Below, piece after piece: positions 6,686 to 31,659 of a stretch of DNA of 64,000 nt. The first letter of the stretch is position 1. Each line of letters starts with the position of its first letter. Under the pieces are notes generated by a model, which was given only the letters and a program-made list of their open reading frames with translations, was not told where the DNA came from and made no database searches. A program made the position numbers and the translations under genes. The stretch is from Octopus vulgaris (taxonomy: Eukaryota): NCBI GenBank assembly GCA_951406725.2, contig OX597817.1, positions 105,958,001 through 106,022,000 of the forward strand, in the 5' to 3' direction.

Positions 6686-6820
6686 TTCGGCGACAGGACT
6701 TGCTTATTGTCTTTTCCTTTTCACAGCTATTTGGATCCCCTCGACGTAAAGTTAGAACACGGACCTTTTTATTAGTGACAGGGTCACAGGCAGACCACTC
6801 ACCCTTCTCATATTTACACT
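6686..6820 (-). CDS. PTN-like: Pleiotrophin/midkine-family gene, coding exon 5: PTN/MK C-type domain 3 (KCKYEKGEWSACDPVTNKKVRVLTLRRGDPNSCEKEKTISKSCRR)
   Basis: Missing from the ORF track. ttttAG acceptor and GTGAGT donor; 135 nt, phase 1-1. Clear paralogue of exon 4 with identical length and Cys spacing. Confidence 0.9.
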
Positions 6821-8843
6821 CTAAAATCAGTAAGGATAATTAATTTCAACTGGAATAGGAATATTACAGAAATTTAATGTTCTGCTATAAGTTTTCAAAT
6901 GCATACAAGTTAGATTAGAAAAAATATATATAATGGAACACCTCGTATAACAATGCACAATATCACTTTTTAGTTATATGCATTGGCTAATTATAGTCAG
7001 TGATCTGAGAAATTCTAAGATTATATCTGCTTTTGTTTCAACACAATATCAGAGAAATATTTAAGGAAATAATACTTTTATAGTATATTGAAGGTAATAA
7101 TACTTTTATAGTATGCTGTATATTGTTTATATCGCTTCTAAAAAATATAAATATAGAGATTTTTATTTCAAGTTTTAGTTTTTACAGATTACTTCATCAA
7201 AATGATTTATTTGTAAAAATATCAGCAGCAAGCTCGATTCATAGATTAATTTCTATTATAACTGACAAAAAAATTTTTAGTAATTTTTTTTTCCCCCCAC
7301 TAGCTGTGAAGTCAAGATTCATTATAAAGCTGTCAGAAAACAAATTGCTTATATTTTTAGAGTAAACTTTAAGCTAATGAATAAAACAATTTTTTTACTT
7401 CATGAATAATAATTTGGTATGTACAAATTGTATGACTTAGCAGAAACACAAATAACACATCTCCTTATCATTATTCCATCACTGAAATGATAATTTCTTT
7501 TAACTATACTTACTAGAGCTTTATTTTATTTTATTTTATTTATTTATTTATTTATTCATTACCTTAGACTGAACACAGAACAATCTAGAACAGAGAACCA
7601 AAGGAAATACTATAAAGCATTTATAGAGCTATTCTTTAACTACTAAACTCTTGCTCCAAATATTCTCCTTTACATCCTCATGAAAATAGAAATAAGGATA
7701 GTTTTTTTTTAGTGTATAATGTATTAATGTTGCCTATTTTGTATGTTGGAACTGGGTAAATATCATGTTATATATTGTATACATGTTTAGTTAGAAGCAA
7801 CATCTACTGAAGATTATCCAAAAAAATTATATAGAATACTATCCCTTATATGATGAATAGGAAGAGGATGAGATGCAGGAAGATAAAGATGGTGATGATG
7901 ATGTTGACAATGACGATGATGATGATGATGATGATGTGTAACCCTCATTTTCAGAAACTGCCAACATATATCTGACATAACTGATAAAAAGTAACTGGAG
8001 AAGGTAAGGCAAAAAGGGGTAAGTTGGAATGAATTAGTTTTGTAAAATGTTTAAAAGTATATGTTTTGCATGGTCATATACTCTATTTTATTAAATATGA
8101 ACAATTTTTTTGGCATTATTATTATATTAATGTATAAAACTATCATGGTTGGAGGGAGCGGTTGCTAATATTCAGTTACAAAGTTGGACACTTTTAGTAA
8201 GTATAACAGAAATAAATTAATAATAACTAATATCATATAAATTAAGAATAGTAATGTAAATTACACTTGTAGAAAATTTGACTGCTTTCATATTATATCA
8301 GTGTATATATATGCATATACATACATATACATACATGCACATATACACACACATATATATATATATATATATCCATGCATGCATGTGGCATATATGTATG
8401 TATATGCTCAAACATGTACATGATTCGGATGGTGATATATATATATATATATATATATATATATATATACACATGTATGAAATTATATGTAAATATATAT
8501 TTGGTCTAGAAGAGGCAGTACCAATGACTTTTGCAGGCCTTTCAAGGCCATTGAGCTTGACAAACTAGATGTTTTATATATAGTGAGACAAATCTAAATT
8601 CATTACTGAACACATCACTACGTTACCTAAGTCTTTTTAGTTGAACAGTCTTGAGATACTCTAAATAGAAGGCATGCTAAAACAATCAGGTATTTCTAAC
8701 TGGTTCTCAGTTTACTCCTTATCAAGGACAGAAAATATTTTAGAAGTCTAAATTGTAGATTAAATAATATTTTACATTATAAGTACCAGTTTGAGATAGA
8801 AAAGAGAAACAGATCCATTGGTAAGATTGTTTTACACACACAG

Positions 8844-8897
8844 ACTCTCTCTCTCTCTCTCTCTCTCTCTCTCTCTCTCTCTCTCTCTCTCTCTCTC
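8844..8897. repeat. (CT)n microsatellite
   Basis: Pure CT run. Confidence 0.95.
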
Positions 8898-9108
8898 AAA
8901 TAGGTCCTTAGACATTCCAGCTCTTAATGCTGAAAAATTCTGGCAGATAATTCATTTATAAAATATAGATAAGTTTATTTAGTTGACAAGCAATTAAACA
9001 AATGATTTAAACATATTCAGTGGGTTAATTTTGATTTAATCTGTTAATCTGTTCATCTCTCTACAAACTGACTCTGTAAAACAAAGGTTTGAAATGTTGC
9101 TAACTTAC

Positions 9109-9243
9109 TTAATTTGCATGTTTTTGTTAATGTCTTCTCCTTTTGACATCTGTTTGGGTCTCCACGCCTTAGTTTTAACACCCTTGTTTTTTCATTTGTC
9201 TGGGCATCACATTGGGACCAAGGGCCTCGGGTATATTTACATG
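9109..9243 (-). CDS. PTN-like: Pleiotrophin/midkine-family gene, coding exon 4: PTN/MK C-type domain 2 (ACKYTRGPWSQCDAQTNEKTRVLKLRRGDPNRCQKEKTLTKTCKL)
   Basis: ttgtAG acceptor and GTAAGT donor; 135 nt, phase 1-1. Same 4-Cys CKY/W/CD pattern. Confidence 0.9.
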
Positions 9244-10027
9244 CTACAAACAAATTCTAAACATTATGGCCATATAAATAAAATATAAAGCATTCATTTA
9301 GAACTCCTCAAGCTTAAAAGCTGTAAATTATGCAAGCGATTCTGTATAACCGAATATAATATGAGTCGCCACAAACACACATACACATGTGAAATGTATA
9401 GAAAACCCTATTGGTGTTGGATATTCAATAGATAAAGTCAATGCCTTGTCAGTTTTAAAACACAAACCTTCTTTGTCATACACGTAATTATATTTTCTTA
9501 TTAACAAATTTTTATAATAAATGATCCACATTTAGGGGTTTTGTTTGTTTTTTATTTTACATCTTTTCAAAAGTGGTACTTTACATATTATAAAGTATAA
9601 TATATTATAAATACAGCTCCAAAATAAAATTCATGTATATTCTGACTTCATTACATACAAACTAACAGTAAAAGCTAAACAAAGATTTGAAAAAAAGAAT
9701 AAACTCTAAATTTGTGAGAAAGGGAAAAGAAACCAAACCCCCCAAAAAAAAGAACAATTATACTAAACCAAGAAAGGAGTAATTGTGGTGGGTAAAAACC
9801 TAAACAGATTAAAATTTCACTGTTAATCTAGAAATGTATGAAATAAATCAATACTCTATGTTTATATTATCTTCCAAATAGACATCACCAGCTCTTAGTA
9901 CTGTACAGATTTCTTATATCTTATTTATTCCTTTTATCTAAACATAGCATACACTCAGTAAAATTATAATTCCCTCTGCCACACTCAGACATCATATAGA
10001 ACAAAGTTATTTACAACATTCACTTAA

Positions 10028-29234: not shown

Positions 29235-30064
29235 CTACAAAATAAAAGAAAGTATGCATTTTAAGTCAATTTTTTTTCTATAACTGGCCATTATGTTTCA
29301 GATATGAAAAAATAATTTTAGTTGAAGAAAATACACAAGGCTAACTACCCATACACTAAAATATAATATAACCTCCAAAAGTAATGTAAAGTTGAAACAT
29401 ATTTCTATGCAGTGAAATGGAGACAATGCATATCTGAAGTGGAAAAATAGGAACATGAGTTGCTTATTTCTCTTGGTGAAGAATCTTATTTGTATGTTAG
29501 CAACAACTAAACCATTTTCCTTCAGTAAAGTGAAGACTGGAGATATTTAATGTAGTGGAGCAAGAAATTTTAGATAATTAAAATTAATTAAAAACAGGAT
29601 CACTAGGAAGTGAGTTAGAGTATAGTCAGTACAGTGCAAACTGAGGGTATGCTTTGGTCTTGTTAGACCTCATTAGCAAAACACAGTCTAACTGCTATTG
29701 CCAGATCTTAGATGACTAGAGATGAATGTAGAATTTTAGAGAATGAGCACTGAGCAGTGTAATAATTTAAAAGAATGACTGCTGGGTTGGGAATACCAAG
29801 GGTGCTTAACTATTTACCTTTAGTCTATCTCCACTTCATTTCACAGCTAAACATGTGAGAGTACCCGATAACATCAAATGCAAATAAAAAATTATTCACT
29901 TGAAATTTTGTTCCAACAGATTATACGTATCTAAATTTCCAAGTTCAATATAAACTAACTAGAAACATTTATATTAAAATCACACTTTTAACAACAAAAA
30001 AATACTGAATGGAACTAGCTAACAGATAATAGAGGTTCTAAAATGCCTGATCACATAAAAATAT

Positions 30065-30240
30065 TATTTCAAATTTTGACAAAAGCCCAATAATTTCGGG
30101 GGTGTTGATTGCACTGGCCCAATACTCAACTGGGCCCCAAAAGGATAAAAGGTGAAGTCAACCTAGGTGGAATTTCAACTCAGAATGTGAAGATAGAGAA
30201 AATGCTGCTGAGCTAACAATTCTGCCAGCTCACTATCTTT
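30065..30240 (-). mobile_element. SINE family A copy (internally deleted)
   Basis: aaaaggataaaaggtgaagtcaacc..ggaatttcaactcagaa..ttctgccagctcac. Confidence 0.65.
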
Positions 30241-30904
30241 GATCGCGTAAAAGTATTGAAATAGCATATACAAGGTTTAACAGAATTCTTTATATTCTGA
30301 AAAGAAACTGTTGTCTTCAACTGAAATCATACAATACTTTATTGTGATTAGCTGACAACAGATTCAACTTCCAACATGAAAATCATCATCATCATATTGA
30401 TGTCCACTTTTCCATGTTTGCATTAGTTGGATAAAATTTATTGTTGCAGATTTTCTATGGCCAGGTGCCTTTCTTGTTGCCAAACCTCACTTATTTCCAA
30501 AGAAGGTAATTTTTTCTTTAAGGCCAGACATGATCTCACAGAATAGTGAAAGTCAATGATATTGCTTCTATGACAGTGACAATCATTTAAAGCGATACCA
30601 AAACAGAGAGGAACAAACGTCCATACACCCACACTCCAACACACATAGATGTGTATTTTACACACACACGTGTACATACAAAACAGCCTTCTTTCAGTTT
30701 CCATCAGTCAAATCTACTCGTAAGTCTACTGTTGACCTGTAATTATAGTAAAAGTCACTTGCCCAAGGTGCCACACATGCATAAACACACTACATAAAGG
30801 TAAAGTAAGTTACCTTCTGAAGTCATACTGACTCATAAGGGCTGGTTTTCTGGTTTCATGGCGTATATATTCCCTACCTGGATGGGATGCTGCTCTGTTG
30901 CAGG

Positions 30905-31048
30905 ATTACTCATTTTTGCCAGCTGAGTGAACTCGAACAATGTGAAATGAAGTGTTTTGCTCTAGAACATATGTTACCTGGTCCAGGAATCGAAACCACA
31001 ATCTTATGATCATGAGTCCAACACCCTAACCACAAAGCCACGCATCTC
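30905..31048 (-). mobile_element. SINE family C-related head fragment
   Basis: Reverse complement of gtggctttgtggttagggtgttggactcatgatcataagattgtggtttcgattcctggacc. Confidence 0.6.
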
Positions 31049-31556
31049 CACAAACACACTACATTCACAACATACACCCACACACACACACATTCACAAA
31101 CTTGAATACCAATTACAGACATTGAGACAACCTAAAATTCTATACCCATAAGCTAAAATTACTCTTTTGAAACAGAAGACTTGACTAACTAAATAATTTC
31201 TAAATAATTCCAAGTAATCATGACATGTAGAACAAATTTTAAATATATTTTTCATAACTAACATACATGACAAGCTGAATAAGCTCCAAGCAAAGAACTC
31301 CAAATCAACTTAACTAGTACAATAGGCTTTAAGCCATTAACCTAAGTTGAATGATTAACATTCTTAGAATATCTTTTTTATAAATTTCAAAATATCAAGC
31401 TTAGTTAGATCAAGTTTGAAACATTAAAAAGCAAAAATAAATAAATAAATAAAAAAACACGAAAATTATATGCAACAGCAATTCACAAATGTTTCAATAT
31501 ATAACATGATTAATCAAAATATATTTTGTAGAATATTTTCATGATAATCTGCTTAC

Positions 31557-31659
31557 TTTTTAATGCAGCTGCTGGTTTGTCTGCTTGTTGGGCTTTAGCT
31601 ACATCTGTCACTCCAAAAGAGACAGACAGAACACATGTAATAATCCACAGCAGTTTCAT
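31557..31659 (-). CDS. PTN-like: Pleiotrophin/midkine-family gene, coding exon 1: signal peptide MKLLWIITCVLSVSFGVTDVAKAQQADKPAAALK(R)
   Basis: Missing from the ORF track and read by hand. Acceptor tttcAG lies 4 nt upstream of the ATG (31659). It has a hydrophobic signal-peptide core with A-K-A at a likely cleavage site and a GTAAGC donor. 103 nt, phase 1, joins exon 2 in frame (a+ga = Arg). Confidence 0.85.

Follow-up and report, generated by a model that had tools for sequence, protein, structure and literature searches.

Exon structure of the octopus gene

The 64,000-nt stretch of Octopus vulgaris DNA analysed here (contig OX597817.1, positions 105,958,001 to 106,022,000; hereafter the window) carries on its minus strand five of the eight coding exons of a single gene of the pleiotrophin/midkine (PTN/MK) family. 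The complete coding region spans 39,033 bp and encodes 379 amino acids (aa), comprising a leader, an N domain, five C domains (C1 to C5) and a terminal domain designated T. The exons and introns are given below in the order of transcription, together with the number of basic residues at six positions of a predicted glycosaminoglycan (GAG) site.

31557..31659, minus strand: coding exon 1; ATG, predicted signal peptide and basic linker; 34 codons + 1 nt
29034..29234, minus strand: exon 2; PTN/MK N domain with 6 Cys and Lys-rich linker; phase 1-1; PF05196 22.1 bits
14716..14856, minus strand: exon 3; C domain 1; PF01091 41.8 bits; GAG-site positions basic 5/6
9109..9243, minus strand: exon 4; C domain 2, symmetric 135-nt cassette; 46.6 bits; GAG-site positions basic 6/6
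6686..6820, minus strand: exon 5; C domain 3, symmetric 135-nt cassette; 49.2 bits; GAG-site positions basic 6/6
within 6821..31556, minus strand: introns 1-4, of 2,322, 14,177, 5,472 and 2,288 nt
1..6685, minus strand: window part of intron 5 (whole intron 9,855 nt)
G000:C4:105954681-105954830 (= L006 6681-6830), minus strand: exon 6; C4; phase 1-1; PF01091 50.2 bits
G000:C4:105953120-105953266 (= L006 5120-5266), minus strand: exon 7; C5; phase 1-1; PF01091 44.2 bits
G000:C4:105950627-105950754 (= L006 2627-2754), minus strand: exon 8; terminal T domain, four Cys, TAA; weak TSP_1 match, E 0.066

The five coding stretches of the window measure 103, 201, 141, 135 and 135 nt. Each is directly followed by GT(A/G)AG, every internal exon has AG and a pyrimidine tract in front of it, and all junctions are in phase 1. 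When joined, they amount to 715 nt, or 238 codons with zero stops, and encode a hydrophobic leader, one 6-Cys domain and three 4-Cys domains. An earlier note on this DNA had proposed five GT-AG exons in one 238-codon frame, with which the splice signals, the phase and the lack of stops agree. It had also remarked that two of these exons (31557-31659 and 6686-6820) are missing from the track of open reading frames (ORFs), and indeed the stop-to-stop list of the window contains no minus-strand ORF of at least 60 aa at either place. Every domain exon alone scored above its Pfam cut-off (N, 22.1 bits vs. 20.4; C1 to C3, 41.8, 46.6 and 49.2 bits vs. 25.3), and the C-domain motif was found three times in the window vs. 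once in total in 200 shuffled windows. The five-exon chain is real and lies beyond chance.

By hydropathy, residues 3-13 form the sole strongly hydrophobic segment of the product (Kyte-Doolittle 11-mer 2.63; at most 0.5 beyond residue 30). An AG acceptor is located 4 nt before the ATG of exon 1 (31660-31665, minus strand), so an upstream exon is likely.

Exon 5 closes with a GT donor and without a stop, indicating that the gene continues past the left edge of the window. Searching the genome with one C exon and with PF01091 turned up five matches; all of them belong to this locus, and two lie 3.2 and 4.7 kb past that edge. With exons 6 to 8 added, the N domain and three C domains counted in the earlier note become seven modules, i.e., N, five C and T. 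Assuming cleavage after residue 23, the mature protein contains 86 Lys+Arg vs. 32 Asp+Glu and 30 Cys, with an isoelectric point of 9.8. The joined 379-aa model corresponds to residues 24-402 of a deposited Octopus vulgaris protein, '58-like isoform X2' (P0022). The gene is thus already annotated in this species, but under an uninformative name and not as pleiotrophin. The cephalopod host supposed in the earlier note is borne out, identical deposited models carrying the label Octopus vulgaris. The 23-residue N-terminal extension of P0022 was found neither in the window nor, by one degenerate pattern, genome-wide.

The N exon and the T exon gave one strong genomic match apiece, and the locus is the only PTN/MK-family gene found in the octopus genome. 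Besides C4 and C5, no further C-type exons were detected in introns 1-5 or in the 80 kb downstream, where T was the only other coding exon. One acceptor-like AG between C5 and T (L006 ~3129-3050, minus strand) opens, as judged by eye, a short frame that runs to a stop, which could be an alternative T-less last exon or a chance occurrence. A candidate second N-domain locus, G000:C2:22033105-22033224 (L019), was the sole genomic PF05196 match above the cut-off; it was rejected, as it contains two stops and is not readable as a PTN domain. Its surroundings resemble by eye what we take to be the tail of a mariner-type transposase.

Domain identity and predicted glycosaminoglycan binding

The family is pleiotrophin/midkine, as the earlier note had claimed, on the basis of Pfam, PDB sequence and fold matches. 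All five C exons matched PF01091 with 41.8-50.2 bits (cut-off 25.3) and share the Cys offsets 0, 10, 31 and 41. The best PDB sequence matches were pleiotrophin and midkine (E 2.8e-12), and the N domain matched the pleiotrophin N-terminal domain 8voh (E 1e-6). The PF05196 match was marginal: it passed on isolated exon 2 only and was reported neither in the whole-protein scan nor at this locus in the genome search with the family.

The GAG-binding residues of human PTN form two clusters, K84/R86/K107 and K68/K91/R92, according to the available part of PMC8773689. Transfer of these positions to the octopus C domains through the PDB sequence alignment placed basic residues at 5, 6, 6, 5 and 4 of the six positions in C1 to C5, respectively, and W74 was kept in all five. 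C2 and C3 are the closest pair among the octopus C domains (65% identical), and identity per C domain between Octopus species is 88-100%. From its sequence, the octopus protein is predicted to be secreted and to bind GAGs multivalently, and the earlier suggestion of multivalent heparin/GAG binding is likely right, the basic clusters being kept.

Isoforms of the octopus gene

Evidence on isoforms comes from deposited gene models, namely eight octopus records from three Octopus species. N, C1, C4 and T were present in all eight. One model without C2 and one without C3 exist for each of O. bimaculoides and O. sinensis, and one model without both C2 and C3 for each of O. sinensis and O. vulgaris. 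The latter also has one model lacking C5 and one with all five C domains. All of these skips (C2, C3, C2+C3 and C5) are in frame, and skipping most often affects C2 and C3, the only two domains in which the predicted GAG site is complete. The layout N+4C+T also occurs in an unnamed protein that shares 58% identity with that of octopus; its contigs are no longer than 1,255 nt, which would fit a spliced transcript.

Predicted folds

The full-length AlphaFold model had a mean predicted local distance difference test (pLDDT) score of 75.6 and a predicted template modelling (pTM) score of 0.26, with most domain blocks at 75-90 and the linkers below 50. This fits, without proving, a flexible chain that lacks a fixed orientation of its modules, each of which is predicted to fold as a small thrombospondin-type beta-sheet. 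The best fold matches by VIA-align among solved structures were pleiotrophin and midkine, the PTN C-terminal domain 8voi matching the model at exon 4 (C2) with Z 5.4 and a root-mean-square deviation (rmsd) of 1.9 over 44 aligned residues, and Foldseek ranked properdin first and pleiotrophin second.

The T module modelled alone reached a pLDDT of 95.8. Its best fold matches were MIC2 (Z 4.3), Sema5A (Z 4.2, rmsd 2.5, 38 residues aligned) and F-spondin (Z 3.6); Foldseek gave no match at E 0.001, and the Atlas neighbours were TSP1/spondin clusters. Against TSP_1 (PF00090), T scored 13.9 bits, below the cut-off of 21.6, and it has four Cys rather than six. As far as the models tell, T resembles thrombospondin repeats with low Z, a likeness that gives a fold class and no function.

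Homologues in other animals

Homologues were collected by three word-index searches and an exhaustive profile search, of which the best 150 of 388 matches were used. The resulting set of 229 proteins includes cluster members, isoforms and fragments, is biased to long arrays by the queries, and had its domains counted with profiles built from the set itself. It contains 91 proteins with at least three C domains and 24 with at least five. Eighteen have the layout N-(C)3+-T, and 19 more are (C)3+-T without a detected N. Where present, T is always last (51/51) and N always first (48/48). Named N-(C)3+-T proteins outside Octopus belong to Lingula, Priapulus, Saccoglossus, Glandiceps, Asterias (two species) and Amphiura. 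The layouts were as follows.

Lingula: N4CT
Priapulus: N4CT
Saccoglossus: N3CT
Glandiceps: NN3CT
Asterias: N3CT
Amphiura: NNN3CT
Anneissia: 3C+T
Tubulanus (nemertean): 5C+T, with a divergent N seen by eye
Bivalves: 5-9 C+T
Gastropods: 6-10 C+T
Chelicerates: CCC, neither N nor T
Insects: CC, neither N nor T

It is N, and not C, that has been multiplied in tandem in Amphiura (P0102, three copies) and Glandiceps (P0198, two copies). Two Patella caerulea proteins without T, P0014 and P0054, have 3C and 6C and nearby locus tags, which suggests tandem paralogs. Several unnamed proteins (P0168, P0200-P0204 and P0208) were found by the invertebrate queries and have a vertebrate-like N+C layout with a basic tail; their taxon bears on the question of paralogy discussed below. 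Among the matches listed (the best 150 of 388 and those of the word-index searches), no homologue was named as coming from a vertebrate, amphioxus, tunicate or cnidarian; because the queries were biased towards proteins with several domains, this does not amount to absence.

The earlier note had said that the novelty would vanish if N+3C were the ordinary architecture across lophotrochozoans. At least three C domains turned out to be ordinary in lophotrochozoans and to occur also in the priapulid, chelicerates, hemichordates and echinoderms.

Homology of the modules

A tree was built from 128 domains of 26 chosen proteins over 42 columns, with C domains of fewer than four Cys dropped, and was left unrooted. 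All 20 T domains fell on one side of a branch (support 100/94), with the ambulacrarian T domains grouped at 96/88. By these sequences, T is one homologous module, always terminal, across protostomes and ambulacrarians. Octopus C2 and C3 grouped with domains of two unnamed cephalopod-like close relatives (100/98), and this C2/C3 duplication looks, on the sequences compared, to be the only cephalopod-specific one. The last C before T was not recovered as a single clade in the tree.

Positional profiles were made from the first, second and third C domains (classes a, b and c) of five ambulacrarian proteins and applied to 20 hand-picked T-ending proteins, 11 named and nine unnamed. Class b was assigned to the penultimate C in 13 of the 20, and class c to the last C in 11, so that 24 of 40 calls matched vs. 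13.4 on shuffling (p = 0.0002). The RxDx[LV] motif was present in 13/20 penultimate and 3/20 last C domains and in 0/78 other domains. Four of five named insects read a-b, Tachypleus a-b-c and Parasteatoda a-b-a; the second domain was of class b in all five named insects and both named chelicerates.

Interpretation

The window contains five of the eight coding exons of the single PTN/MK gene found in this genome, and the basic 379-aa product of this gene is predicted to be secreted and to bind GAGs multivalently; we consider it probable that the N-(C)3+-T layout goes back to the bilaterian ancestor. As the long layout is shared by brachiopods, priapulids, acorn worms and starfish, vertebrates and insects likely retain only shortened remnants of an ancient multi-module protein. 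Judged from the sequences, N-C-C-C-T is the likely ancestral bilaterian layout, with the vertebrate N-C and the insect C-C as reductions; chordates would have kept N and one C, insects two C and chelicerates three C, and molluscs would have added C copies. The direction implied earlier, an expansion from a short ancestor, does not agree with the wide spread of the long layout in protostomes and ambulacrarians.

With less assurance, on a balance that tips only slightly in its favour, we propose that vertebrate PTN/midkine and insect Miple are independent fragments of the long form, and that the cassette exons of the octopus gene serve as a splicing dial for GAG avidity. The mechanism in our main reading is that the basic face of each C module would bind a sulfated segment of heparan or chondroitin sulfate. 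Avidity would come from having five to seven modules in a row, and these could also bridge proteoglycan receptors of the syndecan, glypican or PTPRZ type or gather them into clusters, as has been proposed for two-domain vertebrate PTN. All C exons are phase 1-1 cassettes whose loss keeps the frame, so that exon skipping would set the valency at three, four or five C modules.

Several points weigh against these readings. The tree is rootless, has only 42 columns, was made without vertebrate, amphioxus, tunicate, xenacoelomorph or cnidarian sequences, and leaves most C-domain forks without resolution. The positional scheme does not hold for octopus itself, whose C4 is called c instead of b, nor for Lingula or Tubulanus, and the hand-picked proteins include related, non-independent molluscs and nine unnamed ones. 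Short invertebrate forms exist, among them Liolophura NCC, Physella CC and the unnamed N+C proteins. The inclusion of all five C domains in one protein is suggested by deposited models and by the one 58%-identical N4CT protein. Secretion, binding, receptors and tissue role are all matters that we infer. A strong developmental, neural or regenerative role should not be assumed, because loss of the fly miple genes is viable and Alk is not activated.

The short forms could also reflect hidden paralogy or another tree, in which early bilaterians already had two genes, one short (N+C) and one long (N-C3-T), or T was gained after the chordates had split off, and vertebrate PTN/MK was never truncated. 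We regard this history as unlikely. It would account for the short forms known today (P0168, P0200-P0204, Liolophura NCC and the two Patella loci without T), a tree without any vertebrate sequence leaves room for it, and the monophyly of deuterostomes is debated, which also speaks in its favour. On the other hand, octopus carries the long gene only, and some of the short records may be splice forms or fragments. Moreover, in the CC proteins of named insects and the CCC proteins of named chelicerates, the domains mostly fall into successive classes of the long form, indicating that truncation of the long form has happened.

It is similarly doubtful that the protein is mainly a polycationic matrix or host-defence protein (of mucus or cuticle, or antimicrobial) and not a receptor-clustering growth factor. 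Such a role would go with the very high positive charge, the repeat build and the big repeat expansions in shelled molluscs. Midkine has antibacterial activity, and the three papers listed under 'pleiotrophin-like' are studies of insect infection or immunity. The PTN GAG-site residues and the cysteine spacing are kept, however, and the octopus gene is single-copy with 88-100% identity per C domain between Octopus species, unlike defence families, which evolve fast. The two roles are also not mutually exclusive.

It is most improbable that the architecture arose from a two-domain ancestor by an expansion confined to cephalopods and linked to their neural complexity or to regeneration. The C2/C3 pair, the closest at 65% and grouped only with two cephalopod-like proteins (100/98), does point to one lineage-specific duplication. 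For the overall architecture, however, this view is refuted by arrays of equal or greater length in bivalves (5-9 C), gastropods (6-10 C), a nemertean (5 C) and, with 4 C each, a brachiopod and a priapulid, and by the 3 C + T of hemichordates and echinoderms.

Relation to known proteins

Vertebrate PTN and midkine (PDB 2n6f, 2lut, 2luu, 8voh and 8voi) resemble the octopus protein in the order of N before C, the cysteine spacing, the basic GAG-site residues and the Trp. They differ in having one C domain instead of five and a Lys-rich tail where octopus has T, and the cassette-exon isoforms are an octopus feature. Vertebrate PTN has 168 aa, as given in the available part of PMC4287103, vs. 379 aa in octopus. 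The insect Miple-type proteins (Drosophila miple1/miple2) and the chelicerate three-C proteins share the tandem C domains and the basic charge with octopus and have a signal peptide, which in octopus is predicted, but the insect CC and chelicerate CCC forms have neither N nor T; the set compared was without Drosophila sequences. Fly Miple binds heparin, the loss of both miple genes is viable, and no activation of Alk was seen, according to the part of PMC4224452 that is available.

Closest in layout are Saccoglossus 'Pleiotrophin-like 150', Lingula XP_013399793, Priapulus LOC106820788 and Asterias XP_033646089, which have the same module order and the terminal T. By sequence comparison, these N-(C)3-4-T database proteins are probable orthologs of the octopus one, from which they differ in having three or four C domains instead of five, and some ambulacrarians have duplicated N. 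No functional study of the four proteins was found in the literature searched. The arrays with the best fold likeness to the T model are those of thrombospondin type-1 repeats (TSRs), i.e., semaphorin-5A TSR3-4, F-spondin, thrombospondin-1 and properdin. Unlike a canonical TSR, octopus T has four Cys, only 40 aa and a short predicted helix, and falls below the TSP_1 cut-off.

Within the openly accessible literature, with subscription papers and supplements outside the search, no description of multi-C forms, the T module or the proposed history was found. The available part of PMC4287103 treats only Drosophila among invertebrate homologs, the family names are absent from the text of PMC7535936, and PMC10131483 merely lists the Pfam ids of the family. 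The family is known and the proteins are already in databases; the gene is real and no peculiarity of cephalopods, and what stands out is a likely reversal of the family history, together with a valency series open to testing.

The family is known almost solely from the two-domain vertebrate and fly proteins, which would be the exceptions if the long form came first. The cross-linking of proteoglycan receptors by PTN is raised as an open question in the available part of PMC8773689. With an ancestral long form, the octopus isoforms with three, four and five C domains, together with mollusc proteins of up to 10 C, would offer a natural titration series for this. The T module, kept from priapulids to starfish and without a Pfam model of its own, is a candidate for an element of binding or oligomerisation that is absent from vertebrates. 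Work on octopus neurobiology and regeneration gains a correctly named single-copy PTN/MK gene.

Repeats elsewhere in the window

Positions 50676-60685 of the window hold a head-to-tail duplication of ~5.0 kb with 99.7% identity, which could be a recent duplication or an assembly artefact. The 159-aa ORF within it (53324-53803, minus strand) has no Pfam match and resembles by eye what we assume to be a retroelement relic. Finally, a 176-bp segment at 48241-48416 is 93% identical to its own reverse complement.

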